Numbered from the stretch's first letter, positions 13,941 to 64,000 are shown. The stretch is DNA of 64,000 nt from an uncultured Dehalococcoidia bacterium (GCA_964558415.1 CAZLDI010000016.1:538-64537), one strand, 5' to 3'. A program made the numbers and translations. The notes: generated from the sequence alone by a model not told the origin.

Positions 13941-14444
13941 TCAGAAGTAGACCGTGTATGAAACACCGGTATCGGATGTCAGCACGAACCAGCGGTCGGC
14001 GCTCGCCACCGTTGCCGGGCCAAGCTGTATGCGGATCGTCATCAATTCGCCGGTGTCCAGCTTGCCGGGGTTGCGGGCGTCCGGCGCGATCGCCGTGATC
14101 GTCCACGTGTTATCCGGCTGGATCGCGTCCTCCGTGTAGGGCAGCCACGTGCTGTGGCGCTGCAGGTCCGCACCGTTGTAACTGATTATCATGTCCATGT
14201 GGGCGAAGTCCTCCAGCACTGTCCTCCCGTCGTTCGCGACGACTGCGGTCACATCCACGCCGGTCGCGCCCACCACACTGGAGACGACCGACAGGTCTGT
14301 GCCGAGGCGCTCTTCAGAGATCGCCTCCATCTCGCGCCACGACTCGTTCACCGTGGTCAGCGAATTATGCGTTACATCCGCGATCAACACCCCTGCCAGG
14401 ACCATGATCGCTGCGATGAGAAGCGCGGGAATCGTGTGTTCCAC
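13941..14444 (-). CDS. flaG: FlaG-like archaellum accessory protein (N-terminal TM + beta-rich domain)
   Basis: 167 aa with N-terminal hydrophobic helix MEHTIPALLIAAIMVLAGVLIA. Size and position (between the flaF-like gene and flaH) match euryarchaeal flaF-flaG. Assignment is by synteny and architecture only. Confidence 0.5.
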   Translation of the reverse strand: MEHTIPALLIAAIMVLAGVLIADVTHNSLTTVNESWREMEAISEERLGTDLSVVSSVVGATGVDVTAVVANDGRTVLEDFAHMDMIISYNGADLQRHSTWLPYTEDAIQPDNTWTITAIAPDARNPGKLDTGELMTIRIQLGPATVASADRWFVLTSDTGVSYTVYF

Positions 14445-14453
14445 AACAGTAAC

Positions 14454-14957
14454 CTAAAGCGAAAACGTCCTACTGGCCGTGATACCGTTGGGCAGCACGA
14501 TGGTGCTGATGTAGTCGGTCCCGGCGGCCAGGTTGTAGTCCAGATAAACGGTGATTCGGAGCGTCGCGAAGGGCGTCCACTCCGTGTCGTTCTCAAGTTG
14601 GTATTGCCAGCAGGGTTCAGTCCGTGGCGGTGGCACCGGATTAGGGCACGTTGGCAAACTGTCATAGTCGATGCGTTCGAAGGCATCGACCTCTCCGAAG
14701 AAAACGTCGATCTTGTTCAGCGACGGTATGTTGATCGCGCCAACGTTCTTCGCCCAGATCTGGACACTGTCCTGTCCATCGATGCCGGCCGTCTCAATGA
14801 CCTTGACATCACTCCGCAGGCGCGTGCCCACAACGTCGCTCGCGGCCACGATGTCGCTGCTCGTCCGCTGGATAGCCGGCAAGACGGAGTTGATCACGAC
14901 CACCGTCGCTACGATCGCCGCGATCATTAGCAGCAGGGAGGTTATGACCTTGTCCAC
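14454..14957 (-). CDS. flaF: FlaF-like archaellum accessory protein (N-terminal TM + beta-rich domain)
   Basis: 167 aa with N-terminal helix MDKVITSLLLMIAAIVATVVVINSV. It is a paralog-like neighbour of the FlaG-like gene. Assignment is by synteny only. Confidence 0.5.
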   Translation of the reverse strand: MDKVITSLLLMIAAIVATVVVINSVLPAIQRTSSDIVAASDVVGTRLRSDVKVIETAGIDGQDSVQIWAKNVGAINIPSLNKIDVFFGEVDAFERIDYDSLPTCPNPVPPPRTEPCWQYQLENDTEWTPFATLRITVYLDYNLAAGTDYISTIVLPNGITASRTFSL

Positions 14958-14998
14958 GACTTACCTCCAGTTGTCCGGGCCGTGGGGGCATGATCGAT

Positions 14999-15736
14999 TC
15001 AGAGCGAGGCCAGCCTGTCGAGGTCCTGCATGACCTTGATCCAGGCAAGCCTTTCTTCGTCAGATGTCTTGAGCAGTTCCTGCAAGTGGGCGAGGGCGCG
15101 AATGATGTTGGGGGGAAGCGCGCCCCAGAGTCTGTGCATCGCGATCACATGCTCAAGATTCTCAGCGCCGATCGTCGCTAACGCCTCCGTCACCCAGGAC
15201 GACAGACTGGCGCCCGCGGTTATCGGCGGCAGGTTCGCCATGTACATCGTTGGTATCTCCGTATCTAGTGCAGGCCGATCGAACTCAGGCTCGGAGCGCC
15301 TCTTCCGGCGACCCGCAGCGGCTGCCGCCTCGCGGTCGGACTGCCTTGACCCGGCGGCGTCGCGAGGATCACCTGATTCGGGCGCGTCCTCAATCAGCGG
15401 CGCGTCCGCTCCCTCCGCCACCGCAACCGGATTCGCGTCCACCGTCGCAACGCCTGTCTCCGCCTCGTCAATTCCCAGCGCGGAAGCGGGTATCGTCTTG
15501 GTGTTTGCCGGCGCCGAATCGGCGGCAGTCGCCGCCTCGTGAGCAGCAACCTCGGAGGCCATGGCGCGCGCCGTCGTATTCAGGTCCATGCGGATGAACG
15601 CTGACTGGTTGTCTTCGCCCAGAGGGTTCACCTTCTCCAGGACGACCTCACGGATATCGAGGAGGACATTGCGTATCTCCGCCTTGAGGACCTTTAACTC
15701 GTCCTCCAGCTCTTTGATCTTCGCGTTGACTTCCAT
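14999..15736 (-). CDS. putative FlaC/D/E-like archaellum accessory protein (coiled-coil N-term, Ala-rich linker, conserved C-terminal domain)
   Basis: 245 aa with N-terminal coiled coil EVNAKIKELEDELKVLKAEIRNVL and a low-complexity linker. The C-terminal block (...MYMANLPPITAGASLSSWVTEALATIGAENLEHVIAMHRLWGALPPN) is reminiscent of the FlaD/E domain. Its position is between the archaellins and the flaF-like gene. Confidence 0.4.
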   Translation of the reverse strand: MEVNAKIKELEDELKVLKAEIRNVLLDIREVVLEKVNPLGEDNQSAFIRMDLNTTARAMASEVAAHEAATAADSAPANTKTIPASALGIDEAETGVATVDANPVAVAEGADAPLIEDAPESGDPRDAAGSRQSDREAAAAAGRRKRRSEPEFDRPALDTEIPTMYMANLPPITAGASLSSWVTEALATIGAENLEHVIAMHRLWGALPPNIIRALAHLQELLKTSDEERLAWIKVMQDLDRLASL

Positions 15737-15762
15737 GGCCTGAGCTGCTCCTGATTCAGGCC
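15737..15762 (-). promoter_or_regulatory. stem-loop (7 bp stem GGCCUGA/UCAGGCC) abutting the start codon of the FlaD/E-like gene, with the SD (AGGAG) in the loop
   Basis: Inverted repeat GGCCTGA(15737-15743)...TCAGGCC(15756-15762) lies between the archaellin array and the accessory genes. There is no U-tract. Confidence 0.4.
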
Positions 15763-15811
15763 CCGATTACGCCCCTACCATTTGGTGGCTCGTCGGGGGC
15801 GCCATCAAGGA

Positions 15812-16402
15812 CTAGTGAAGGTCCATTACCAGATCGATCGACGGAGGCATCGTGCGGTTGATAAGCAGCGTGCCGCCCTGCGGAGGAACGACTTCCAGAG
15901 TGAATATCTCGTTGGCGACGAGAGTGGAGGCTGCTGGAGGAGCAACGTTGATCTCGAATAGCTCCCCGTTCTCCAGCAGATCGTCGGCGTCGCCCTGGAT
16001 CTTGAGGACGGTGTACGTAGCGTCAGCCACGCGCGCCTGCGCATCGATGTAGTTGATGATGACCGAGTTCGTCGCGGCAGCCGGGTCGACCAGGACCGGG
16101 AAGCCGCCGGCGGCGTTCGCCAGATTGAACTCGATGTTGTCAAGAGTGGTGATCGTGCCACTGGCGTTAGTGTCCGTGACCGTGAGTGCACCGCGGACTT
16201 CGAGGTTGCCGCGGGCCTTCTCCAAACCGGCGAAGACGGTCTCCTTGCCGCGCTCAGCGCTGAACAGACCGGTGCTGAGGACCACGAAGGCGAACACCGA
16301 GGCCACGATGACGAACGCGATCAGGATGATCGCCGTCTCCAGACCGGTGATGCCCTCTTCTTTCTTGTGCAGGCTGCCAAACAGCCGCGTAAGCCTCGAC
16401 AT
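15812..16402 (-). CDS. flaB: archaellin (archaeal-type flagellin), paralog 4
   Basis: 196 aa. Class-III signal peptide (MSRLTRLFGSLHKKEEG|ITGLE) followed by a hydrophobic N-domain (TAIILIAFVIVASVFAFVVLSTGLFSAERGKETVFAGLEKARGN). Compare Methanococcus FlaB [36 protein letters not shown]. Confidence 0.85.
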   Translation of the reverse strand: MSRLTRLFGSLHKKEEGITGLETAIILIAFVIVASVFAFVVLSTGLFSAERGKETVFAGLEKARGNLEVRGALTVTDTNASGTITTLDNIEFNLANAAGGFPVLVDPAAATNSVIINYIDAQARVADATYTVLKIQGDADDLLENGELFEINVAPPAASTLVANEIFTLEVVPPQGGTLLINRTMPPSIDLVMDLH

Positions 16403-16435
16403 TCTGTTACCCCTTCCTGCCTGTGGGCCCGTGAC

Positions 16436-17026
16436 CTAGTGGAGGTCCATGACGAGGTCGATCGACGGCGGTACTGTGCGGTTGATCAGCAGCGTGCCAC
16501 CCTGCGGAGGAACGACTTCCAGAGTGAATATCTCGTTCGCGACGAGAGTGGAGGTGCCTGGAGGCGAGACGCTAATCTCGAAAAGCTCCCCGTTCTCGAG
16601 CAGGTTGTCGCCATCGCCTTGGATCTCGGTAACGGTGTACGTAGCGTCAGCCACGCGCGCCTGGGCATCGATATAGTTGATGATGACCGAGTGCGTGGTG
16701 GCGGCCGGGTCGACCAGGACCGGGAAGCCGCCGGCGGCGTTCGCCAGGTTGAACTGGATGTTGTCAGCGGCGGTGATAGTGCCGCTGGCATCGGTGTCGG
16801 TGATGGTGAGGGCCCCGCGGACCTCCATGTTGCCCCGCGCCTTCTCCAAACCGGCGAAGACGGTCTCCTTGCCGCGCTCAGCGCTGAAGAGACCAGTGCT
16901 CAGAACCACGAAGGCGAACACCGAAGCCACGATGACGAACGCGATCAGGATGATCGCCGTCTCCAGACCGGTGATGCCCTCTTCTCTCTTGTGCAGGCTG
17001 CCGAGCAGCCGTGTAAGCGTATTCAT
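16436..17026 (-). CDS. flaB: archaellin, paralog 3
   Basis: 196 aa, about 90% identical to the neighbouring copies, with the same class-III signal peptide and hydrophobic N-terminal domain. Confidence 0.85.
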   Translation of the reverse strand: MNTLTRLLGSLHKREEGITGLETAIILIAFVIVASVFAFVVLSTGLFSAERGKETVFAGLEKARGNMEVRGALTITDTDASGTITAADNIQFNLANAAGGFPVLVDPAATTHSVIINYIDAQARVADATYTVTEIQGDGDNLLENGELFEISVSPPGTSTLVANEIFTLEVVPPQGGTLLINRTVPPSIDLVMDLH

Positions 17027-17063
17027 TTGTTACCCCTTCCTGTGTTCCGTGAGCGTGTGTGAC

Positions 17064-17654
17064 CTAGTGGAGGTCCATGATGACGTCGATCTCCGGCGGC
17101 ATCGTGCGGTTGATCAGCAGCGTGCCGCCCTGCGGAGGAACGACTTCCAGGGTGAATATCTCGTTGGCGGCGAGAGTGGAGGTGCCGGGGGGCGAGACAT
17201 TGATCTCGAACAGCTCCCCGTTTTCCAACAGATCGTCGGCGTCGCCCTGGATCTTGAGCACGGTGAACGTGGCGTCAGCCACGCGCGCCTGGGCATCGAT
17301 GTAGTTGATGATGATCGAGTTCGTCGTGGCAGCCGGGTCAATAAGGACCGGGAAGCCGCCGGCGGCGTTCGCCAGATTGAACTCGATGTTGTCGGCGCTG
17401 TCAACGGTTCCGAGCGGCGCGACGTCGGTAATGGTGAGGGCACCACGGACCTCAAGGTTGCCCCGTGCCTTCTCCAGTCCGGCGAAGACGGTCTCCTTGC
17501 CGCGCTCAGCGCTGAACAGACCGGTGCTGAGGACCACGAAGGCGAACACCGAGGCCACGATGACGAACGCGATCAAGATGATCGCCGTCTCCAGACCGGT
17601 GATGCCCTCTTCCCTCTTGTGCAGGCTGCCAAGCAGCCGGAAAAGCTTAGACAT
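17064..17654 (-). CDS. flaB: archaellin, paralog 2
   Basis: 196 aa with the same N-terminal domain. It has a divergent patch at residues 78-90 (VAPLGTVDSADN). Confidence 0.85.
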   Translation of the reverse strand: MSKLFRLLGSLHKREEGITGLETAIILIAFVIVASVFAFVVLSTGLFSAERGKETVFAGLEKARGNLEVRGALTITDVAPLGTVDSADNIEFNLANAAGGFPVLIDPAATTNSIIINYIDAQARVADATFTVLKIQGDADDLLENGELFEINVSPPGTSTLAANEIFTLEVVPPQGGTLLINRTMPPEIDVIMDLH

Positions 17655-17686
17655 GTATTACCCCCTCTCGCCTGTGAGCGAGTGAA

Positions 17687-18277
17687 CTAATGCAGATCCA
17701 TTACTGTGTCGATCTCCGGCGGCAGCGTGCGCATGATCAGCAGCGTGCCACCCTGCGGAGGAACGACTTCCAGTGTGAAGATCTCGTTGGGTGCCAGGGT
17801 GGACGTACCCGGCGGGGAAACGTTGACCTCGAAGAGTTCGCCGTTCTCCAACAGGTTGTCGCCATCGCCCTGGATCTCCGTGACGGTGTACGTGGCATCA
17901 GCCACGCGCGCCTGTGCGTCGATGTAGTTCATGACCACCGAGTTCGTGGTGGCAGCCGGGTCCACTAAGACCGGGAAACCGCCGGCGGCGTTGGCCAGGT
18001 TAAACTCGATGTTGTCCGCGGCCGTGATCGTGCCACTCGCGTCCGTGTCTGTGATCGTCAGCGCGCCTCGGACCTCCAGGTTGCCCCGCGCCTTCTCCAG
18101 ACCGGCGAAGACAGTCTCCTTGCCTCGCTCGGCGCTGAACAGACCGGTGCTGAGCACCACGAAGGCGAACACCGAAGCGACAATCACGAAAGCAATGAGG
18201 ATGATCGCGGTCTCCAGACCGGTGATACCCTCTTCTCTCTTGTGCAGGCTGCCAAGCAGCCGCGTGATCTTGCGCAT
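17687..18277 (-). CDS. flaB: archaellin, paralog 1 (first gene of operon)
   Basis: 196 aa. A strong SD (AAGGAGG) precedes the ATG, and a 660 bp AT-richer leader/promoter region lies upstream. Confidence 0.85.
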   Translation of the reverse strand: MRKITRLLGSLHKREEGITGLETAIILIAFVIVASVFAFVVLSTGLFSAERGKETVFAGLEKARGNLEVRGALTITDTDASGTITAADNIEFNLANAAGGFPVLVDPAATTNSVVMNYIDAQARVADATYTVTEIQGDGDNLLENGELFEVNVSPPGTSTLAPNEIFTLEVVPPQGGTLLIMRTLPPEIDTVMDLH

Positions 18278-18937: not shown

Positions 18938-21190
18938 GTGAGAATTCCGCTTTCCACCGAACGCCTCGCCGTTGCGAGCGCCCGCCGCCCCTGGACCGTC
19001 ATCGCGCTCTGGATCGCCGCCATCGTGGCCTCCGTCGCCGCGATTACCCTTTTCCTCTCCGATTCGCTGACAACGGAGATCGCCCTCACCAACAACCCGG
19101 AGTCCGTGCGCGCCGAGGACTTGCTCGAGCAACGCCTGCGCGGGCCTCAATCCACAAACGAGATCATCATCGTTCGCTCTGCCGACGTCACCGTCGACGA
19201 TCCGCAGTTCCAGGCGCTCGTCGAGGGCATCTATACCGACGTCGCCGCCCTCGGGCCCGGCATCATCGCCGGAGGTACGAACTTCTACCAGTCAAACGAC
19301 CCTTCGCTCGTTTCGCAGGACCGCCGCACCACCATCCTTCCTTTCGTGATGGCGGGCGACCACGAAGAGGCGGAGGACAACGTCGGTGGGGTCATCGACA
19401 TCGTCGAAACGGCCGACGGGACGGATGACTTCGCGGTCCTCATCACCGGTGGCGCAAGCATCAGCGAGGAGATCGGCGTTCAGGCCCAGCACGACCTCGA
19501 GCGCGGCGAGTCGATCGGCATTCCGATCGCGTTGCTGGTCCTCGTGCTCGTCTTCGGGGCGCTCATCGCCGCTGGCGTGCCGCTCCTGCTCGGCATCCTC
19601 TCGATCGCCGTCGCCGTCGGCGCGACCGCGCTGTTCGGGCAGGTCTTCCAATTCTCTTTCTTCGTGACCAACGTCATCACAATGATGGGGCTGGCCATTG
19701 GCATCGACTACTCGCTGTTCATCGTCTCTCGCTACCGCGAGGAACGAAATCGCGGCCTCGCGAAGCAGGACGCGATCGCCGCGACCGGCGCGACGGCCAG
19801 CCGCGCCGTCTTCTTCAGCGGCATGACCGTCGTCTTCGCGCTCTTCGGCATGCTGCTCGTCCCATCGACGATCTTCCGCAGCCTCGGCGCGGGGGCGATC
19901 ATCGTCGTCGTCGTTTCCGTCCTCGTCTCCCTGACCCTGCTGCCCGCGCTGCTCGGCCTCCTCGGCGACAAGGTCAACGCGCTGCGCGTGCCGTTCATCG
20001 GCCGCGGCGCGATCCAGGCGGACCACGAGAAGCGCGGCGGCTTCTGGGACACCGTCACCAGCTTCGTCATGCGGAATCCCGTCATCAGCCTCATCGCCTC
20101 CGCCGCGCTCCTGATCGGCCTGGCCGTACCCTACCTCGATATCAACACGGGCTCCGCCGGCGTGAGCACGCTCCCCGAGGCCCTCCAGGCGCGACAGGGC
20201 TTCGAGATCCTCCAGGAGCAGTTCTCCTTCGGCCTCGTCTCGCCGGCGGAGATCGCGATCGAGGGCGACATCGCGGGCGACGCGGTCCAGGGCGGGATCG
20301 AACGCCTGGAGTCGACGCTCGCGGCGCACCCGGAGTTCGGCCCCGGGAAGCTCACGGTCAACGAGCCGGGTGATGTCGCGCTTTACTCCGTGCCAGTGAA
20401 CGGCGACACGACGAGCAACGACACGCTGGCCAGCGTGCGCGCCCTACGCGAGGAGTACGTCCCGCAGGCGTTCGCGGGCGTGGACGCGACGGTACTGGTC
20501 GGCGGAGAGACCGCCAAGACGATGGAGTACATCGACCAGACCGCCGAGTCGACGCCGATCGTCTTCATCTTCGTGCTGGGGCTGAGCTTCGTGCTGCTGA
20601 CGCTCGTCTTCCGCTCCATCGTGGTGCCGTTCAAGGCGATCATCATGAACCTGCTCTCGGTGGGCGCGGCCTATGGGCTGCTGGTGCTCGTCTTCCAGAA
20701 AGGCGTCGGCAACGAGCTGTTCGGCTTCCAGCAGGTGGACATCATCGAGGCCTGGGTGCCCCTCTGGACGTTCTCGATCCTCTTCGGGCTATCGATGGAC
20801 TACCACGTGTTCCTGCTCAGCCGCATCCGCGAGCGCTTCGACCGCACCGGCGACAACCGCGAGTCGGTGGCGTTCGGGGTGCGCTCGACGGCGGGGATCA
20901 TTACCGGCGCGGCGCTGATCATGGCCAGCGTCTTCGGCGGCGTGGCGCTGGGCGACCTCGTGATGTTCCAGCAGATGGGCTTCGGCCTGGCGGTGGCGGT
21001 GCTGCTGGACGCGACGATCGTGCGCTCGGTGCTGGTGCCGGCCGCGATGGAGCTGCTGGGCGACCGCAACTGGTACCTCCCGCCGTTCCTGCGCTGGCTC
21101 CCCGACCTCCGCTTCGAGGGCGAGGGCAGCGGCAAGCAGCCGGAACCCGCCTGGCGCCCGGAGGCCCCCGGAGGCGCGAAGGCGGGGTAA
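18938..21190 (+). CDS. MMPL/RND-superfamily membrane transporter
   Basis: 750 aa with two 6-TM bundles and two periplasmic domains, typical of MMPL exporters. Confidence 0.85.
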   Translation: MRIPLSTERLAVASARRPWTVIALWIAAIVASVAAITLFLSDSLTTEIALTNNPESVRAEDLLEQRLRGPQSTNEIIIVRSADVTVDDPQFQALVEGIYTDVAALGPGIIAGGTNFYQSNDPSLVSQDRRTTILPFVMAGDHEEAEDNVGGVIDIVETADGTDDFAVLITGGASISEEIGVQAQHDLERGESIGIPIALLVLVLVFGALIAAGVPLLLGILSIAVAVGATALFGQVFQFSFFVTNVITMMGLAIGIDYSLFIVSRYREERNRGLAKQDAIAATGATASRAVFFSGMTVVFALFGMLLVPSTIFRSLGAGAIIVVVVSVLVSLTLLPALLGLLGDKVNALRVPFIGRGAIQADHEKRGGFWDTVTSFVMRNPVISLIASAALLIGLAVPYLDINTGSAGVSTLPEALQARQGFEILQEQFSFGLVSPAEIAIEGDIAGDAVQGGIERLESTLAAHPEFGPGKLTVNEPGDVALYSVPVNGDTTSNDTLASVRALREEYVPQAFAGVDATVLVGGETAKTMEYIDQTAESTPIVFIFVLGLSFVLLTLVFRSIVVPFKAIIMNLLSVGAAYGLLVLVFQKGVGNELFGFQQVDIIEAWVPLWTFSILFGLSMDYHVFLLSRIRERFDRTGDNRESVAFGVRSTAGIITGAALIMASVFGGVALGDLVMFQQMGFGLAVAVLLDATIVRSVLVPAAMELLGDRNWYLPPFLRWLPDLRFEGEGSGKQPEPAWRPEAPGGAKAG

Positions 21191-21400
21191 CCTCACCCCC
21201 GGCCCTCACCCCCGGCCCCGTAATCTCGCCAATCTGTATTCCCCGAGTCGCTCACCAACGGGGGTCAGGCTCGCAGCCTGACGCGCCGGCCGGGTCGGCA
21301 ACAGCACTGCCAGTACGCAGCCACTGCGCGCACAGGGACGGGGCGAGTCACGCAGGCGTGTGCCGCCAGGACCTTGTAACTCTCGCCGAAAGGTGCAATC

Positions 21401-21631
21401 GTGAACACGGAACCAAGCAGGATATGGAGAGCTGAGACGATGAACGTATCGGAGCTGAAGGCGGGAGACAGGGTACAGACTATTGACGGGACGCTCGCAG
21501 AGGTACTCAAGGAAAGCGAAGATGGGCGCTGGATCCTCGTTCGATACGTGGCCCATGCCAGCGATCCGAAGCTGATCGGAACCGAGGATCTCTGCTCTGA
21601 GGACGAAATCGAAGTCCGAATGACTTCGTAG
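21401..21631 (+). CDS. small hypothetical protein at start of lower-GC island
   Basis: 76 aa ORF. Local GC is visibly lower than the flanks. No homology recognised. Confidence 0.3.
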   Translation: MNTEPSRIWRAETMNVSELKAGDRVQTIDGTLAEVLKESEDGRWILVRYVAHASDPKLIGTEDLCSEDEIEVRMTS

Positions 21632-21779
21632 CTGCTTACCGTGCTCCGCCATGTCGGACGCAAGCGCCGCCCTGATGCTAGACCAGTTGTCAACAATTGG
21701 GTGTCATTTCCAGGTTGACTCACCGCGCTGTACGGCCCGAACATCTTTACAAGTAGGTCACTTGGCTAGGCGCTAAGAA

Positions 21780-22979
21780 ATGTTCACGAGTGTTTCTCTG
21801 TTCTCAGGGGCCGGTGGCCTCGACCTAGGCCTTGAGTCGCATGGTTTCGCGACCCGGGTATTCGTTGAGATAAACAAGGATGCTCAGGCCACGCTCAAGT
21901 TGAATCGCGCGGCGTGGCTCGTCCCTGATGCGGTGGTGCTGGGCGACATCACCCGGGTCTCAGCCTCAGAGGTTCTGGCGGCCGCCGATCTGCAGCCGGG
22001 GGAGAGTGGCCTGCTTGCCGGGGGCGCGCCCTGCCAATCCTTCAGCACCGCTGGCAGGCGGGCATCCATCGCAGATCCAAGAGGGAGTTTGTTCGCCCAT
22101 TTCGCCCGAATCGTTGACGGCCTCCAGCCTCGATTCTTTGTTTTCGAGAACGTACGGGGGATTCTCTCCGCCGCAATAAGACATCGGCCGCTCCACCTAC
22201 GTGGTCCCGAAGCTGAACCGCTCACTGAAGATGAGGAGCTAGGGAGCGCCGTGAAGAGAGTTATATTGCCCACCCTCCGCGATGACCTCGGCTATGAGGT
22301 CGTCTATGGGCTCGTCAACGCCGCGGATTATGGCGTCCCCCAGAAGCGCGATCGTGTCCTCTTCCTTGGGAGCCGCGACAGGGAGTTCGGGAGCGATCGC
22401 TGGCCATTCTTCGAGAACGCCATCGATCGGCTCATGCCTCCTACCCACTCGCGCTCCGGCGCTTACCCACTCGGTGGGTGGTGCACATTGGGAGACGCAA
22501 TCCGCGCACTCAGGGAGGAGGATCCTGAATTCGTGCCATACTCTGCCTCGAGGAAGGCTGTCCTCGATCTGGTACCGCCTGGAAAGAACTGGCGGTACCT
22601 GCGGGACAGCCTCGGTGACGAGTATCTCAGGAGCATCATGGGCGGAGCTTACGCGGCGGACGGCGGGAAAGTCGGCTTTTGGCGGCGCCTGGACTTCGAC
22701 AGGCCATGCCCGACCGTGCCAGCGAGTCCTATACAAAAGGGGACGTCGTTATGCCATCCCAAAGAGACTCGGCCCCTGTCGGTGCGCGAATACGCACGCG
22801 TTCAACAGTTCCCGGATTCGTATCAATTCGCTGGTTCAACTGCCTCCAAGTACCGACAGATTGGGAACGCAGTGCCCATCGGACTGGGTGAAGCCGTGGG
22901 GCGCGCGCTGATCGCAGTCACGCAAGGTCAAGTCCAGGTCGCCGAAGAACGTGCCACTTACGCCACAACAGCGCGCTGA
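21780..22979 (+). CDS. DNA (cytosine-5)-methyltransferase
   Basis: Motif I FSGAGG, motif IV GGAPCQSFSTAG, motif VI ENVRG and motif X RQIGNAVP are present, so the enzyme looks complete. Confidence 0.9.
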   Translation: MFTSVSLFSGAGGLDLGLESHGFATRVFVEINKDAQATLKLNRAAWLVPDAVVLGDITRVSASEVLAAADLQPGESGLLAGGAPCQSFSTAGRRASIADPRGSLFAHFARIVDGLQPRFFVFENVRGILSAAIRHRPLHLRGPEAEPLTEDEELGSAVKRVILPTLRDDLGYEVVYGLVNAADYGVPQKRDRVLFLGSRDREFGSDRWPFFENAIDRLMPPTHSRSGAYPLGGWCTLGDAIRALREEDPEFVPYSASRKAVLDLVPPGKNWRYLRDSLGDEYLRSIMGGAYAADGGKVGFWRRLDFDRPCPTVPASPIQKGTSLCHPKETRPLSVREYARVQQFPDSYQFAGSTASKYRQIGNAVPIGLGEAVGRALIAVTQGQVQVAEERATYATTAR

Positions 22980-23700
22980 CATCCAGGCGATTTTCACCAA
23001 GACGGTCGCCAATGCGTTCGATCGTTTGGGAAATTTGACTCTCCAAGCTCAGGCAATCAACCCCTTTCTGGCAGTTCTCGTTGCCAGAAGGCCACGGGAT
23101 CTGGCAGAGTTCATCGTTCACCAGAGGGTAGAGCGCGGCCTAGTGACATCGTTTGGCATGCAAATCCAGAGGATCGTGCTGCTTGTGGGGGACAACCTCC
23201 ACACCAGTGGGATCGAAGGCGCTGACCTCGAACGAATTGACGATGCGGTGCACCGCCACATCCTGGCGCAGTTGAAAAGCGGTCCCGAAACCGTCAACAG
23301 CGACATCGCAGGCCAGATCCGGAGGAATTTGAATTCAGCCGAGCATCGAATTAAGATGGGGGGCCTACCCCAGGGATGGGCTACAACCAAGATGCTGGGG
23401 ATGATCTACGGAACCCCGCGGCACCGCAATAGTTGGGTGATGAAGCTGGACGCCGAAGGTTTCGATGTAGACAAGATAGGAAGTGCATTTTGGCAATTCG
23501 CATCCGGGGCGTCTGACACTCACATAGAGGTCTTCCAAATAGCGTTTGAGGTTGCTCACTCTTACCGCCACGAGACCGGGCGCACACTCCCAGAGGCAAT
23601 TCAAGAGGCAATCGGATCCCTCACCAACGAGCTGCGCACTCACTACAGTGATTCGAAGGGTGACATAGATTGGACAAGGCTTCTCCAAGAGAACATGTAG
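22951..23700 (+). CDS. hypothetical protein, candidate type II restriction endonuclease partner of the C5-MTase
   Basis: 249 aa ORF overlapping the MTase 3' end by 29 nt, with no recognisable family. It is assigned by position only. Confidence 0.35.
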   Translation: MPLTPQQRADIQAIFTKTVANAFDRLGNLTLQAQAINPFLAVLVARRPRDLAEFIVHQRVERGLVTSFGMQIQRIVLLVGDNLHTSGIEGADLERIDDAVHRHILAQLKSGPETVNSDIAGQIRRNLNSAEHRIKMGGLPQGWATTKMLGMIYGTPRHRNSWVMKLDAEGFDVDKIGSAFWQFASGASDTHIEVFQIAFEVAHSYRHETGRTLPEAIQEAIGSLTNELRTHYSDSKGDIDWTRLLQENM

Positions 23701-24380
23701 GCGACAGGAGACAAGGGGATCGCCTTCTTGGTGAGGTGCAAGACAGGAAGGCGCGGTTTGTTCGTCGGCTCCTCAAATGGGGCAGAGCCAACCCAAGGAG
23801 CTTCCCATGGCGCGACCCGGGCCGAACGCCGTACGAGGTGCTGGTAGCCGAGTTGCTGCTTAAGCGAACCACATCTAAAGCCGCGGCGCGGGCGTATCCA
23901 ATCTTCCTGAACCGATTTCCGTCCTTCTCAGCGATCGCTGAGGCCAGAGAGCCTTACCTGGCTTCAGTTCTCCAACCCGTGGGCCTCTCCAAGCAGCGCG
24001 CGAAAGGGTTCCGTGAAATGGCCAAACACGTCGAAAAGGTCCATCACGGGACATTGCCAAGCAGGATTGCAGCGTTGGAGCAGCTACCACACACAGGGCC
24101 ATACAGCGCCCGGGCCGTGGCATCTTTCGCTTACAACCAAAGGGCCGCTATCGTCGATTCAAACGTCATCAGAGTTCTCAGTCGAGTCTTTGCCAAGTCG
24201 GTTCCGGAACGGCAAAGCCTTAAGGCCTGGCAGGCTCTGGCGGACTGCCTTGTCCCCAATCGTGAGCACCGGCTCTACAACTACGCCTTACTGGATCTCG
24301 GGGCTACGGTTTGCCGGTACGACCGGCCTCATTGTTCAGAATGTCCCCTAGCCGTGATCTGCGACTCGGCTAAACCCTAA
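23670..24380 (+). CDS. HhH-GPD family DNA glycosylase with [4Fe-4S] loop (EndoIII/MutY/Mig-like)
   Basis: HhH-GPD core and a terminal Cys-X6-Cys-X2-Cys-X5-Cys cluster (CRYDRPHCSECPLAVIC). It lies directly downstream of a C5-MTase, like Mig.MthI next to M.MthTI. Confidence 0.75.
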   Translation: MDKASPREHVGDRRQGDRLLGEVQDRKARFVRRLLKWGRANPRSFPWRDPGRTPYEVLVAELLLKRTTSKAAARAYPIFLNRFPSFSAIAEAREPYLASVLQPVGLSKQRAKGFREMAKHVEKVHHGTLPSRIAALEQLPHTGPYSARAVASFAYNQRAAIVDSNVIRVLSRVFAKSVPERQSLKAWQALADCLVPNREHRLYNYALLDLGATVCRYDRPHCSECPLAVICDSAKP

Positions 24381-24454
24381 CTACTGCTCCGCCACTGCCA
24401 CTTCCCCCTTAGACCTCCGCCCCAAACCCGATACTCTGAAACCGGAGGTGTCCC

Positions 24455-24994
24455 ATGCCCTGCAGCGAACATCACTTCATACCCATCCTCGACGAACTCC
24501 GCCAAACGCCGGACCCTGAGTTGCCGCCCGGCACGCAGCCGGAGACTCCTGAGCCGCCGTCCATTGCGAAGATCGCCGGCCGCACGTGGGGTGGCCACCG
24601 CCCCGGCGCGGGCGCGCCCAAAGGCAACCTCAACGCCCTCAAAGACGGCCGCCACTCTGCCCGCTACCGCCGCCTCGTCCAGTCGCTCGCCCTCCTCCCT
24701 GAGGTCCGCGACACCCTGATCGGCCTCGGCGAGCACCGCCGTCACCGTCAGCGCCTCGCGGAAGCCGGCGCCTCAGAGCTGCTCGCGGGGCTCCTCCAGC
24801 GCGCCGGCGAGATCGTCCTCCACCCCGAAAGCAATCATGTCGAGAACAATCAAGCTCTCCTCGACTTCCTCCGCAGCGCCGAGCTCAAACTTCGCGCGCT
24901 TTCGAAAATGCAATCAAGAGAAGCTCGCCAAATCGACCGGTCAATCAAGCAGCAGGCCCGCAGACGGCCTCCGCCTCACTCCTCCGCGAAGTAG
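24455..24994 (+). CDS. hypothetical protein (basic; GGHRPGAGAPKGNLNALKDG motif, possibly phage/mobile-element DNA-binding)
   Basis: 179 aa. The last codons run into the duplicated malic-enzyme 3' fragment. Confidence 0.35.
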   Translation: MPCSEHHFIPILDELRQTPDPELPPGTQPETPEPPSIAKIAGRTWGGHRPGAGAPKGNLNALKDGRHSARYRRLVQSLALLPEVRDTLIGLGEHRRHRQRLAEAGASELLAGLLQRAGEIVLHPESNHVENNQALLDFLRSAELKLRALSKMQSREARQIDRSIKQQARRRPPPHSSAK

Positions 24995-25062
24995 TCCGGG
25001 TCGAGGTCGCGGGTGGCGAGGGCGCGGTCGACGCAGGCGCGGGCGACGGCGCGGTGGAGCGT
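24975..25062. repeat. direct repeat copy A: pseudo 3' end of malic enzyme gene (encodes ...DRALATRDLDPDYFAEE* on minus strand)
   Basis: About 69 bp identical to 25873..25941, continuing with a 12-bp indel and 2 mismatches for about 15 more bp. Confidence 0.85.
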
Positions 25063-25073
25063 ATAATTCCTGT

Positions 25074-25403
25074 ATGACCACCAGCACGCGGTTCGACCTG
25101 CCTCATGCCGCCGTCGCGGCCCTGTGCCAGCGACGTCACATCCGAAAGCTATCGCTTTTCGGATCGGTACTGCGGGATGACTTCGGCCCGGACAGTGATA
25201 TCGACGTGCTGGTTGAGTTCGAGGAGGGTCACGTCCCCGGCTTCGGCTTCGTGGCCGTTCAGCAGGAGCTGTCAGAGCTGGTCGGGCGCCCCGTGGACCT
25301 TGTGACGCCGAAGGGGCTCAACCGGCGCATACGCGAGAAGGTGCTCGCGCAAGCAAAGGTGGAGTATGCCGGCGGCGGCGTCGGTCAGCGGGCAGACTGG
25401 TAG
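25074..25403 (+). CDS. nucleotidyltransferase (MNT-type minimal NTase of HEPN/MNT toxin-antitoxin class)
   Basis: GS...D.D motif LSLFGSVLRDDFGPDSDIDVLVEF. Start at ATG 25074, with TATAAT at 25062-25067 only 6 nt upstream (possible leaderless transcript). The 188 aa track ORF is an over-extension. Confidence 0.75.
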   Translation: MTTSTRFDLPHAAVAALCQRRHIRKLSLFGSVLRDDFGPDSDIDVLVEFEEGHVPGFGFVAVQQELSELVGRPVDLVTPKGLNRRIREKVLAQAKVEYAGGGVGQRADW

Positions 25404-25606
25404 ATGGCTGGGCGGTAGCGCGGCCGCGGGATGGGCTTGCCGGCGGTACGGGCCGCATCGAGCCAGGCGGCCTTCGCCTGCTCTACTTCCGCCAGCGCTT
25501 GTTCAGGCGTGTCGCCGAAGGCTGAGCAGGAGTCGAGATCGGGGATGTCGGCGATGTAGCCGCCGTCGTCCTGGCTGTAGAAGATGTTTATGTGGTAGTC
25601 CTTCAT
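25385..25606 (-). CDS. hicB: HicB-family antitoxin
   Basis: 73 aa with an UPF0150/HicB-like N-terminal fold (MKDYHINIFYSQDDGGYIADIPDLDSCSAFGDTPEQALAEVEQA). Confidence 0.65.
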   Translation of the reverse strand: MKDYHINIFYSQDDGGYIADIPDLDSCSAFGDTPEQALAEVEQAKAAWLDAARTAGKPIPRPRYRPAIYQSAR

Positions 25607-25860
25607 GGCGCGTCTTCCATTGTTAGATTATACCGCTCGACTAGCCGCAGAAACTGGCGAATCTGGTACGGCTTAGCCTGTCCGCCTGTGTCCTGAAGGT
25701 TGATGAGCTCCGGAATGGCGGGATGGGCGAAGATGTGATGGCTTCCACTGGTCCTTATCAGGGTGAAGCCGAACGCCTCCACAAGATCGGTGAAGTCGCC
25801 GAAGCGGACGTTGCTTAGGGCGCCGCCGGTGAGTCGGCGCAGGAGCCGTCTGCGCCGCAA
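25603..25860 (-). CDS. hicA: HicA-family toxin (mRNA interferase)-like
   Basis: 85 aa with a GFTLIRTSGSHHIFAHP HicA-like motif. It overlaps hicB by 4 nt. Confidence 0.55.
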   Translation of the reverse strand: MRRRRLLRRLTGGALSNVRFGDFTDLVEAFGFTLIRTSGSHHIFAHPAIPELINLQDTGGQAKPYQIRQFLRLVERYNLTMEDAP

Positions 25861-25867
25861 GTCTTAG

Positions 25868-25967
25868 CCCTACTCCTCCGCGAAGTAGTCCGGGTCGAGG
25901 TCGCGGGTGGCGAGGGCGCGGTCGACGCAGGCGCGGGCGACCGCCCGGGCGACGGTGCGGTGGACCG
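25868..25967. repeat. direct repeat copy B: authentic 3' end of malic enzyme gene
   Basis: Same sequence as copy A. The two copies bracket an 824 bp MNT + HicAB cassette. Confidence 0.85.
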
Positions 25968-27234
25968 AGCGGTCCAGCGGGCTGGGCAGGAGCTGGCCAG
26001 CGGGGGTGACGGCGACGATCGCCTCGCTGGCGGACTGGAAGACCGCGGTCTCGGCGCGGCGCGCGCCGGCGTCGAGCAGGCCGCGGCAGGCTCCGGGGTA
26101 GCAGAGGAGGTTGTTGATGTTCGCGCCGCCCTCGGCGATGCGCGCGCCGGCGTCCATCGCTTCGCGGGCGTCGATCTCCGGCCTCGGGTTGGAGAGGGCG
26201 AAGATGATCTGACCGGCGCGCACCATCTCCGGCTTGATCAGGCCGGCCTGCCCCGTCGTCGCGATCACGATGTCGCACTTGCCGCAGATCTCCTCCAGGT
26301 CGGAGCCCGTGCCGCCGCCGGCCTCCAGGCGCTGGACGGCGTCGGGCTGCTTGTCGGCGCCGAGGACGGCGTGCCCGGTGTAGTGCATCACCGCGCGGGC
26401 GATGGCGAAACCGGCGGCGCCGAGGCCGACCTGGCCGATGCGCAGGCGGTTGGCGGGCGTCTCGACGAGCCGGCAGGCGTTGATCAGGGCGGCGAGGACG
26501 ACGGCGGCGGTGCCGTGCTGGTCGTCGTGGAAGACGGCCATGTCGACGGCGTCCTGAACGCGCGGCTCGATGTCGAAGCAGCGCGGCGAGGCGATGTCCT
26601 CGAGCTGGATCACGCCGAACGAGGGGGAGATAGCGGTGACCGCGGCGACGATCTCGTCCGAGTCCTGGCTGCGGAGGGCGATCGGAACCGCGTTCACGCC
26701 GACGAGGTGCGCGAGGAGCGCGGCCTTGCCCTCGAGCACGGGCATCGCCGCAAGGGGGCCGAGGTTGCCGAGGCCCAGCACCGCCGAGCCGTCGCTGACG
26801 ATAGCGACGGTGTTCGGGATGATCGTGTAGTGGTTGGCCAGCTCCGGGTCCTCGTGGATGCGGCGGCAGACCTCGCCGACGCCGGGGGTGTAGACGCGCC
26901 CGAGGTCGGCGAACGTCTCGATGGGGAGCTGCGAGACGATGCGGATCTTGCCGCCGACGTGCGCCGAGAGCACTTCGTCGCGCAGCTCAACGATCGTCGT
27001 CTCGTCCGACGCTTCCAGTTCAGCGACGAGCGCGTCGAGCTCGTCGAGCGACTCCACGAGGAGGTCGATGTCGCGCACCATGGACGTGCGGCTCTGGTGG
27101 ACCGTGCGGATGTCGCCGACGTTACCGCCGTGGCGGGCGATGACGCTGAGGACGGAGGCGAGGACGCCGATGCGGTTGACGTTCTTGACGCGCAGCGTGC
27201 GGGAGAACTGGGGCTTCTGGGGAGCGCGCGCCAT
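25870..27234 (-). CDS. NAD(P)-dependent malic enzyme with N-terminal ACT domain
   Basis: 454 aa with an N-terminal ACT domain, a malic enzyme core (VYTPGVG...) and a Rossmann fold. Confidence 0.9.
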   Translation of the reverse strand: MARAPQKPQFSRTLRVKNVNRIGVLASVLSVIARHGGNVGDIRTVHQSRTSMVRDIDLLVESLDELDALVAELEASDETTIVELRDEVLSAHVGGKIRIVSQLPIETFADLGRVYTPGVGEVCRRIHEDPELANHYTIIPNTVAIVSDGSAVLGLGNLGPLAAMPVLEGKAALLAHLVGVNAVPIALRSQDSDEIVAAVTAISPSFGVIQLEDIASPRCFDIEPRVQDAVDMAVFHDDQHGTAAVVLAALINACRLVETPANRLRIGQVGLGAAGFAIARAVMHYTGHAVLGADKQPDAVQRLEAGGGTGSDLEEICGKCDIVIATTGQAGLIKPEMVRAGQIIFALSNPRPEIDAREAMDAGARIAEGGANINNLLCYPGACRGLLDAGARRAETAVFQSASEAIVAVTPAGQLLPSPLDRSVHRTVARAVARACVDRALATRDLDPDYFAEE

Positions 27235-63353: not shown

Positions 63354-63986
63354 TTATCTGATGGCGGCCAGCGCGCGCCGGCGCAACAAGTCGCGGAGCT
63401 CACGCCCACCTTCCTCCAAACGAAGCTGAGCGAGTTCCCCTGGCGTTCGACCGCTGACGAAATCGGTGCGGTCTGATATTCGAATCAAGCCGGGAGACCC
63501 GGAAAGGTTGGACCCTAGGATAACGTCTTTCAGAAAATCGTAGAACGCTCGCTGTCGATGTCGGCACTCGCCGGGTGATGTCGGACACCTGAACTGTTCA
63601 TGAGCGGAGCGGTTGTGTGCCCGCCCGGATCCCTCCGGCATTGGGAAGGTACCACAGACAGCCAAATACGCGGATCGGTCGAACCCAACCTTGATTTCCG
63701 AGTAGATAGGAGACTCTAGCGTCGCCTTCCGGAACGTGGAGAAATGGAGAACTTCGTCGTACTCCACTACGAAGGATCGCCCGTCTACATCAATACAGTC
63801 ATCTGAGCCGAGACGCTTAACAAGTGAGGTAAGGCGTGATCGCGACATATCTCCGATTCCGCCGATCTTCCGGAAGACGTTGCCCACTTCGCGAATTACC
63901 GGATCCGGCAGGACCTCTGCCGCTTGGGTCCCGAAGATCGAGAATTTGAAGGGAGTGCTCAAAGTTATCTCGGGATCTTGACACAC
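63354..63986 (-). CDS. hypothetical protein (lower-GC patch at window end)
   Basis: 210 aa ORF. Local GC appears lower. No family recognised. Confidence 0.35.
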   Translation of the reverse strand: MCQDPEITLSTPFKFSIFGTQAAEVLPDPVIREVGNVFRKIGGIGDMSRSRLTSLVKRLGSDDCIDVDGRSFVVEYDEVLHFSTFRKATLESPIYSEIKVGFDRSAYLAVCGTFPMPEGSGRAHNRSAHEQFRCPTSPGECRHRQRAFYDFLKDVILGSNLSGSPGLIRISDRTDFVSGRTPGELAQLRLEEGGRELRDLLRRRALAAIR

Positions 63987-64000
63987 AGCTTGGACGAACG

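Follow-up and report, generated by a model that had tools for sequence, protein, structure and literature searches.

Integron gene cassettes are bounded by attC sites, are promoterless, and often carry toxin-antitoxin genes. Homology-facilitated illegitimate recombination (HFIR) is reportedly also attributed to de Vries and Wackernagel (2002), and insertion with long target duplication is said to have been reported by Nobusato in 2000. For the orphaned 3′ ends seen in Vibrio cholerae type VI secretion system effector-immunity arrays and in Rhs and contact-dependent inhibition loci, HFIR has been put forward as the mechanism (Kirchberger 2017, PMC5361080). For restriction-modification (R-M) units that lack mobility genes, insertions accompanied by a long target duplication of variable length have been documented (PMC2853133; PMC3874152). 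According to the account of Hill 1989 given in PMC6379469, integration of e14/phage 21 into the 3′ end of icd supplies a replacement end and displaces 163 bp of icd′. The cis-mobilizable elements (CIMEs) and microCIMEs of the ICESt1/ICESt3 family are integrase-less, bounded by repeats, and stacked in tandem at gene 3′ ends (PMC7563491). Here, we analyzed a stretch of 64,000 nucleotides (nt) from an uncultured Dehalococcoidia bacterium (GCA_964558415.1, CAZLDI010000016.1:538-64537), referred to below as the window, in which a small toxin-antitoxin cassette has a copy of the 3′ end of a malic enzyme (ME) gene on either side and an R-M islet nearby. The kind of footprint is already known; at this locus, no integrase was found, and relatives fill the site with different genes.

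The duplicated malic enzyme gene end and its cassette

The conserved anchor of the locus is an ACT-domain NAD-malic enzyme of 454 aa (25870 to 27234, minus strand; PF00390, PF03949, and PF13291). Its authentic, in-frame 3′ end, copy B, occupies 25867 to 25967 on the minus strand, with TAG at 25870 to 25872 and 3 nt beyond. A repeat search and alignment placed a displaced, truncated relic of the same gene end, copy A, at 24973 to 25061, also on the minus strand. The repeat search matched 24973 to 25054 with 25867 to 25948 (82 nt, 95% identity), and the repeat resumed after a 12-nt register shift (25037 to 25061 versus 25943 to 25967). In a gapped alignment of 24978 to 25061 with 25872 to 25967, the copies differed by one 12-nt gap and two mismatches (C at 25050 in copy A for T at 25956 in copy B, and G at 25059 for C at 25965), and the longest exact run was 70 nt (24978 to 25047, identical to 25872 to 25941). 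The stop codons are two bases apart, TCA at 24976 to 24978 in copy A and CTA at 25870 to 25872 in copy B on the plus strand, so that in the coding direction TGA ends copy A and TAG ends copy B. The GGC that follows the stop on the coding strand (GCC on the plus strand) is common to both, and the plus-strand pattern of GCC, stop, and CTCCTCCGCGAAGTAGTCCGGGTCGAGG was seen twice within 24700 to 26200. Copy A translates to an end in LHRAVARACVDRALATRDLDPDYFAEE followed by the stop, after which the ME reading breaks off; copy B ends in VHRTVARAVARACVDRALATRDLDPDYFAEE and its stop. Thus, the duplicated ME end bracketing a nucleotidyltransferase gene and hicAB, as the original prediction had it from the sequence, was borne out by the repeat search, the alignment, the translations, and domain matches, and so were its TGA versus TAG difference, 12-bp indel, and two mismatches once both copies had been aligned. 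Two of its figures needed correction: the duplicated part amounts to about 27 codons, not about 23, and the unique DNA between the copies to 805 nt (25062 to 25866), not 824 bp.

Copy A comprises the final ~27 ME codons with the TGA and the 3 nt past it, is one 12-nt ARAV unit short, and is truncated on its gene-body side; the gene-proximal copy B leaves ME intact. The two are direct repeats, 87 and 99 nt long, at a copy-to-copy distance of 894 nt. At three or fewer mismatches, a 51-nt core had two matches in the 64-kb window and none in 100 shuffles; the repeat pair is not a product of chance. The search for additional copies that had been recommended returned only these two in the window. 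A generic intergenic repeat was rejected, as the 64-kb window contains just two copies, each of which consists of ME-coding sequence. Tandem duplication or slippage was rejected as well, since the two copies are followed by unrelated DNA and relatives lack the duplication. At the copy A joint (25060 to 25062), no more than 2 nt (CG) are shared with the ME sequence, which agrees with illegitimate joining, and copy A lies directly against a TATAAT hexamer that precedes the nucleotidyltransferase start. On its other side, copy A runs into ORF179, the last gene of the R-M islet (24455 to 24994, plus strand): the variable tail and the stop of ORF179 lie inside copy A, which supplies its last six codons and stop. 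A perfect 10-nt inverted repeat, CGCAGACGGC and GCCGTCTGCG, stands to the left of the two copies (24959 to 24968 and 25845 to 25854), with arms 4 nt and 12 nt from them, inside the ORF179 tail and hicA codons 2 to 6, respectively. Inverted repeats of at least 10 nt occurred in 0.25% of random window pairs of the same spacing; the arms could be the two halves of a split ancestral terminator, or they could have arisen by chance from Arg codons.

The same structure was present in a second assembly, a Joint Genome Institute (JGI) contig of 39 kb (sample 3300010391, L089), which was 99.97% identical to the window over 12.3 kb, with 4 single-nucleotide polymorphisms (SNPs), one of them in ME and none in the repeats or the cassette. 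Between the copies themselves, divergence was about 4%, versus 0.03% between these twin assemblies, and the differences cluster at the repeat ends, with none in the central 70 nt. The long form VARAVARA is found in copy B and in the relatives aligned there (L081 to L088, L091, and L099). A GCC (Ala) codon that copy A shares with those relatives is ACC (Thr) in copy B. Each copy therefore has derived states of its own, namely, TGA and the 12-nt in-frame deletion in copy A and ACC (Thr) in copy B. The identity of copy A was 97% with the authentic ME end of the window but only 80 to 90% with the ends of relatives, which points to a close relative as the donor. Moreover, passing from TAG to TGA needs two substitutions, both stop-preserving, which suggests that copy A formerly terminated a functional gene in another lineage and makes drift of a relic improbable. 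On the sequence evidence, these features favor two diverged alleles joined by recombination over duplication in place.

The cassette between the copies begins with the TATAAT hexamer (25062 to 25067, plus strand), which sits directly at the end of copy A and 6 nt before an ATG and suggests a putative leaderless transcript of the gene that follows; a consensus promoter scan found no full −35/−10 pair. That gene (25074 to 25403, plus strand) encodes an orphan MntA-like nucleotidyltransferase (MNT; PF01909, 50 bits; PADLOC PDC-S09), which scored 45.8 bits against the MntA NCBIfam equivalog, below the cut-off of 60. The cassette holds no gene for a HEPN toxin partner such as the one that MntA has in type VII MntA-HepT pairs. 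Homologues of MNT have 97 to 103 aa and end in QYA(A/E)G and a stop; the window's MNT has lost this native stop (25368 to 25403) and continues for 8 more residues, so that its 3′ end and hicB overlap by 19 nt. MNT is thus a remnant, and an internal recombination joint near 25377 to 25385 is implied. Since MNT has lost its stop and reads into the 3′ end of hicB, the cassette is in turn a composite of two toxin-antitoxin remnants. The other is a hicB antitoxin gene for a short 73-aa form (25385 to 25606, minus strand; PF15919, 28.8 bits, cut-off 27) and a hicA toxin gene co-directional with ME (25603 to 25860, minus strand; PF07927, 33 bits, cut-off 27). With hicA first, hicB adjacent, and a 4-nt overlap (25603 to 25606), the pair is predicted from sequence to be a HicAB type II system.

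The start of hicA is 9 nt past the ME stop, and no terminator was found between the two genes. Because this gap leaves no room for a promoter of its own, hicAB likely depends on transcripts that read through from ME. A Shine-Dalgarno-like GGAGGAG motif, formed by the final ME codons GCG GAG GAG, lies 12 to 14 nt before the TTG start of hicA (25861 to 25881); a gene that has no promoter and sits just past this stop might rely on ME for transcription as well as for ribosome loading. In composition, the MNT and hicAB genes and ORF179 are nearly native, with a guanine-plus-cytosine (GC) content at third codon positions (GC3) of 0.71 to 0.82 versus 0.8 to 0.96 for core genes. The cassette had no blastn match in plasmid and phage collections.

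The site in related lineages

The closest ME homologues came from metagenome-assembled genomes of uncultured Dehalococcoidia and Chloroflexi, at 76 to 82% identity, and a search of GTDB species representatives with ME returned only 40% relatives. The far edge of the variable site is the stop of a conserved flanking gene convergent with ME, which encodes an MMPL transporter (18938 to 21190, plus strand; PF03176 on the relatives' orthologue) with 66 to 80% identity to its relatives by tblastn. In four related lineages (L081, L083, and L084 to L087), the site is empty, and ME is directly convergent with the MMPL gene. By gene calls, L081 has a spacer of 49 nt, L083 one of 98 nt, and L084, L085, and L087 one of 34 nt each; L086 has the same sequence as the last three, with MMPL called shorter and a resulting spacer of 119 nt. 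Relatives with so short a spacer indicate that the window lineage has gained all of 21191 to 25869 (4,679 nt) as additional DNA. The empty site thus supports an insertion footprint at the ME 3′ end, as had been proposed, and no relative except L091 has a repeat of its own ME end.

Other lineages fill the slot differently. L082 has 417 nt with one small open reading frame (ORF), and L092 to L100 have a gene for a surface protein of 640 to 700 aa with Thr/Pro repeats. L088 (9366 to 12775) carries a 3.4-kb 5-methylcytosine (m5C) R-M islet of the same design as the window's, without duplication of the ME end, composed of genes for an HNH nuclease, a C5 methylase, and an HhH-GPD protein with an Fe-S motif, together with a helix-turn-helix (HTH) gene. 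The methylases of the two islets are 28% identical and the HhH-GPD proteins 32%, which ruled out orthology of the islets; the only gene common to both encodes a small protein with 65% identity (21401 to 21631 in the window and 11937 to 12212 in L088). With a different R-M islet at the same slot and no duplication there, the stepwise build-up that the original prediction had offered as one possibility is favored. The second ME-end copy was absent from L081 to L088 and L092 to L100, which have a single copy each.

Among 114 loci with an ME homologue and downstream sequence, a second copy of the terminal part on the same strand was found only in L091, whose ME is 81% identical to the window's. 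In that contig (region 1476 to 2144), the authentic end is CCTCGACTCCGACTACTTTGTCGAGGAGTAG, encoding YFVEE and a stop at 1504 to 1506. It is followed by a 607-nt cassette with a GC content of 0.60, versus 0.65 for its ME, and with two small ORFs co-directional with ME, one of which has a weak DUF4951 match. Beyond the cassette lies a 31-nt relic (2114 to 2144), CCTCGACTCCGATTACTTCGCGGAGGAGTAG, which is identical to the authentic end at 27 of 31 positions and has the commoner ending, YFAEE and a stop; GGGCC comes next, as in L088, and the contig ends at 2220. Four of the last 18 nt differ between relic and end, and the preceding 12 nt are identical; this identical stretch (CCTCGACTCCGA) falls within the 70-nt core of the window. 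Judged from these alignments, a new gene end was apparently supplied and an old one displaced in at least two independent events at ME, with different cargo and different repeat length. The repeats measure 87/99 nt in the window and 31 nt in L091, and their outer boundaries differ; these are two cases only. Because the lengths differ, variable illegitimate joints seem to fit better than a fixed attachment (att) site.

No recombinase, transposase, or relaxase was found among the ORFs of 21.2 to 25.9 kb with Pfam, NCBIfam, PHROGs, and PADLOC, and no recombinase appeared in the precomputed Pfam annotation of the twin contig across 19 to 31 kb of the window or among ten unannotated small or low-GC3 ORFs elsewhere in it. 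The earlier statement that the window has no integrase therefore holds for the ORFs scanned, which were not all of those in the window. In about 14 related loci, no integrase lay beside ME, and in L081 to L088 and L091 to L100, a small sample, neither an integrase nor a conjugation gene did. A tRNA or other RNA gene as the target was rejected, as no tRNA was found in the window and Rfam gave no match in 20.5 to 27.5 kb. The repeat contains no inverted core-type sites. Single-stranded DNA folds of both copies, on both strands, had z scores of −0.67 to +1.02 relative to shuffles; with scores near zero and no integrase found, an attC-like folded site was rejected too. A third copy of the repeat near 21.2 kb was detected neither at three or fewer mismatches nor by blastn with word size 7, and the suggestion of one element spanning 21.2 to 25.9 kb with an internal relic, which requires such a copy, is thus not upheld.

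Origin of the duplication

We consider it moderately probable that a related lineage was the source of the cassette, which would have been brought in through recombination with ME as the anchor and a single illegitimate joint and would have come to lie beside an R-M islet that was already present. Copy A would then be the former ME 3′ end, pushed 894 nt downstream by the incoming hicA-hicB-MNT. The incoming DNA, consisting of the 3′ part of ME, hicA, hicB, and the MNT remnant, would have brought the donor lineage's own ME end, and its entry would have required one homologous exchange within ME, carried out by host recombination, and a single illegitimate joint (25061/25062) where ME codon −28 meets the −10 box of MNT. 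Linear DNA could have entered by HFIR, or a small circle with about 90 nt of ME could have integrated by a Campbell-type single crossover; either route would have shifted outward what was resident there, namely, the R-M islet and the short-form ME end with its TGA. Thereafter, the 70-nt identity between the copies could serve as a substrate for RecA-mediated loss of the 894-nt unit, and HicA addiction would be expected to counter-select such loss.

The proposal has its closest parallel in the HFIR arrays. In both settings, a conserved upstream anchor gene is retained, the old 3′ fragment and older cargo are moved downstream, no integrase is present, and the event is repeatable at one locus, here in the window and in L091. 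An orphaned ME 3′ fragment lies past the new module in both of these loci, and the distal joint in the window has a microhomology of at most 2 nt. The anchor differs, being here a metabolic gene with a near-identical replaced end and there a polymorphic toxin gene with a variable C terminus; the cargo differs also, here a hicAB/MNT addiction cassette beside an R-M islet in an uncultured Chloroflexota lineage.

Several points weigh against importation of the cassette by this route. Two relic events at one gene end in about a dozen lineages are more than expected of random illegitimate recombination, which hints at some targeting. By its composition, the near-native cassette (GC3 of 0.71 to 0.82) next to foreign R-M genes (GC3 of 0.63 to 0.67) would, taken alone, make the islet the more recent arrival. 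A site-specific recombinase acting in trans, or the islet as the newcomer, would give the same end product. Neither the donor allele (ME-hicAB without R-M islet) nor the preinsertion allele (ME-ORF179-R-M without cassette) was seen. Finally, the collections searched contained no strain-level relative, the best ME besides that of the twin being 82% identical, and we therefore infer both the order of events and the recombination pathway.

That the copies are the attL and attR of a site-specific element with a replacement ME end, as the term att-like in the original prediction implied, with the 805 nt as a decayed remnant resembling a CIME or microCIME or as a mini-cassette moved in trans, is possible but unlikely. 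Such an element would account for direct repeats, for a restored gene end, for a replacement end that differs in sequence from the displaced one, and for two independent hits at the same gene end, with the 12-nt stretch of L091 inside the window's core. CIMEs can retain their att sites while losing all recombination genes (PMC7563491), and like them the locus has integrase-less DNA between direct repeats at a target gene 3′ end and tandem stacking. CIMEs, however, derive from integrative and conjugative or integrative and mobilizable elements and are found with integrase-bearing kin at the site, and none was seen at ME in the related loci, few as these are; the outer islet here, moreover, has no distal repeat. 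As described in PMC6379469, e14 leaves a 163-bp icd′ pseudogene and keeps icd intact through the supplied end, the displaced pseudo-3′ end forming a second direct repeat at the far side, and here too one of two direct repeats forms a functional gene end. In that description, e14 is a 15-kb prophage with an integrase and defined att sites, whereas the insert here is 805 nt long and holds three small genes, none of them recognized as a recombinase gene. Against an att origin also stand the lack of a recombinase in the cassette, the islet, and 19 to 31 kb of the window, the record of no integrase in any of the ~14 related loci, repeat lengths and outer boundaries unlike in the window and L091, the absence of inverted core-type sites and of unusual folding, the R-M islet without a distal copy, and a cassette unmatched among plasmids and phages; the att-like reading is thus not supported. 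A related view, which we regard as doubtful, makes the ME 3′ end a dedicated docking site for integrase-less mini-cassettes of 0.6 to 0.9 kb that push older cassettes outward. Each cassette would carry the last 30 to 100 nt of the gene as its recombination site, would gain entry in the form of a small circle or by way of an unrecognized recombinase acting in trans, and would borrow transcription from ME and possibly translation from GGAGGAG; the result would be an integron-like accretion array without an integron, in which the ORF179 family might take part. With integron cassettes, the locus shares great compactness, the lack of a recombinase of its own, a hicAB that leans on the upstream gene, and repeats that separate cassettes, but its repeat, formed by coding sequence at the end of a conserved gene, is not attC, has no significant fold, and is accompanied by no IntI that could be found.

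It is likewise unlikely that the R-M islet was the newcomer. In that case, DNA of a close relative with the order MMPL-islet-ORF179-ME would have recombined homologously in or beyond MMPL in a recipient that already had hicAB-MNT, and the donor end, 87 nt into its ME, would have been joined illegitimately just upstream of MNT, leaving copy A as a fragment of the donor ME. The junction would have the same anatomy, with one illegitimate joint; the R-M genes are foreign in composition (GC of 0.55 to 0.61), the cassette is nearer native, and R-M islets are exchangeable at the ME-MMPL slot. The ORF179 stop inside copy A further indicates that the islet and an ME end were neighbors before the joint was made. 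In L091, however, the compositionally foreign DNA lies between the authentic end and the relic, so that there the gene-side cassette is the newcomer, and the relic has the commoner ending and is followed by the GGGCC also found in L088. Donor homology of 87 nt with a perfect core should, moreover, have recombined legitimately in ME rather than 805 nt away. An origin in place, by a staggered break of about 90 to 100 nt in the ME end that captured the cassette, with fill-in duplicating the target and later drift of the copies, we judge highly improbable. It would fit the class of insertions with long target duplication, defined by repeats of more than 30 bp, an insert of less than 20 kb, and no mobility genes (PMC2853133), and the 70-nt exact core indicates closely related copies. 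As in the cases of Furuta, Abe, and Kobayashi (2010, PMC2853133), two of which in Haemophilus influenzae also have the repeat over a gene 3′ end, direct repeats of ~100 bp correspond to a single target copy in relatives (here L081 to L088), an R-M system is adjacent, and no transposase or integrase is present. Here, though, the bracketed genes are toxin-antitoxin genes and the R-M genes (21780 to 23700) lie outside the repeats, in contrast to operational criterion (i) of that paper, which places both R and M genes within the insert; the comparison genomes are ~80% relatives rather than conspecific strains, and the copies point to two alleles. Drift fits poorly with differences at both repeat ends and none in the center, with the two hits at exactly the stop-preserving positions that TAG/TGA needs, with copies so much further apart than the twin assemblies, and with the L091 repeat, in which 4 of 18 differing positions beside 12 identical nt fit two alleles better. 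Least probable is an assembly artifact, in which the shared ME-end sequence would have linked one strain variant to another or a chromosome to a small circle. The source is a metagenome-assembled contig and was judged from assemblies, not reads; yet the second JGI assembly, with its 4 SNPs elsewhere, has an identical structure, which makes a single-assembly artifact unlikely, and the exact repeat of only 70 nt is shorter than usual reads and top k-mers. A repeat-mediated misjoin would also not create the truncated ME-MNT joint, for which a real molecule is required.

If the cassette was imported through ME, the relic gene end would record the last arrival, in which incoming DNA from a related lineage brought its own neighboring gene end. 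The locus provides a base-resolved case of small addiction and defense modules accumulating at one slot without a recognizable mobility gene, in a barely studied lineage of uncultured Chloroflexota. The second independent relic at ME in another lineage suggests a recurring process; should the recurrence reflect targeting and not chance, it would point to an unrecognized mechanism of cassette capture. Relics of this sort may serve as markers for ordering insertions in defense islands, and they call for caution in annotation, as short gene-end duplicates are not always att sites.

The R-M islet, ORF179, and other features of the window

The inserted DNA begins directly after the MMPL stop with a tandem 13-nt repeat, two units of CCTCACCCCCGGC (21191 to 21216, plus strand), which looks like the 5′ half of an element resembling a repetitive extragenic palindrome (REP). 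A 17-mer, CCCTCACCCCYGGCCCC, was found in 3 of 123 fetched loci only, namely, in the window's twin (L089 and L090) and in L122, where it again follows a core-gene stop (4874 to 4890) and makes up the 5′ portion of a REP-like hairpin. The islet itself starts with the 76-aa ORF whose 65% identical homologue occurs in the L088 islet (21401 to 21631, plus strand) and which had no family match in Pfam, NCBIfam, PHROGs, or PADLOC. The next three genes, all on the plus strand, encode a C5 cytosine DNA methyltransferase (21780 to 22979; GC3 of 0.67; PF00145, 207 bits; TIGR00675; PADLOC MTase_II), an EcoO109I-like type II restriction endonuclease (22951 to 23700; PF14511, 44 bits, cut-off 22.5), and an HhH-GPD glycosylase (23670 to 24380; PF00730). 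The glycosylase matched the PADLOC model "Type II nicking endonuclease" with an E value of 5e-36 and had MutY/Nth-like NCBIfam matches, all below cut-off; from its family and position, it is probably the repair partner of an m5C R-M system. The original prediction had placed a low-GC R-M patch on the far side of copy A. Low-GC genes do exist there, but the gene directly adjoining copy A is ORF179, with a normal GC of 0.67, and the R-M genes lie farther away.

ORF179 encodes a conserved, predicted helical protein of 179 aa. Its 34 homologues, at 33 to 69% identity, include none with a Pfam domain and share the invariant motif GG.RPG.G.P..N.N....G..S (consensus WGGRRPGAGAPKGNLNALKHGRYS). The structural model is a helical hairpin with a predicted local distance difference test (pLDDT) score of 67, and no relative was found in the PDB by sequence or by fold. 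A hidden recombinase or terminase was considered and set aside, as the protein is not identifiable as a recombinase: the sole resemblance was a 28-residue TerS-like motif (E = 0.006), with no relatives on viral contigs and no PDB match. The family recurs as the last, outward-facing gene of defense islets, its stop abutting that of a convergent core gene. In the window, ORF179 comes after the m5C R-M islet; another contig has a homologue after NYN and GmrSD genes, and L122 has a pair of diverged copies (4315 to 4887 and 436 to 951) around genes for an N4/N6-methylase, a nuclease-like protein, and a SocA_Panacea protein.

Elsewhere in the window, 13941 to 18277 (minus strand) holds small paralogous genes, including four tandem paralogues of ~196 aa, and is syntenic with an L082 region that encodes an archaeal-type flagellin (PF01917) and T2SSE/T2SSF proteins; it resembles a gene cluster for an archaellum-like or type IV filament, here in a member of the Chloroflexota. 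A partial ORF at the right end of the window (63354 to 63998, minus strand), with a DUF7255 match and a low GC3 of 0.61, may be another foreign patch.

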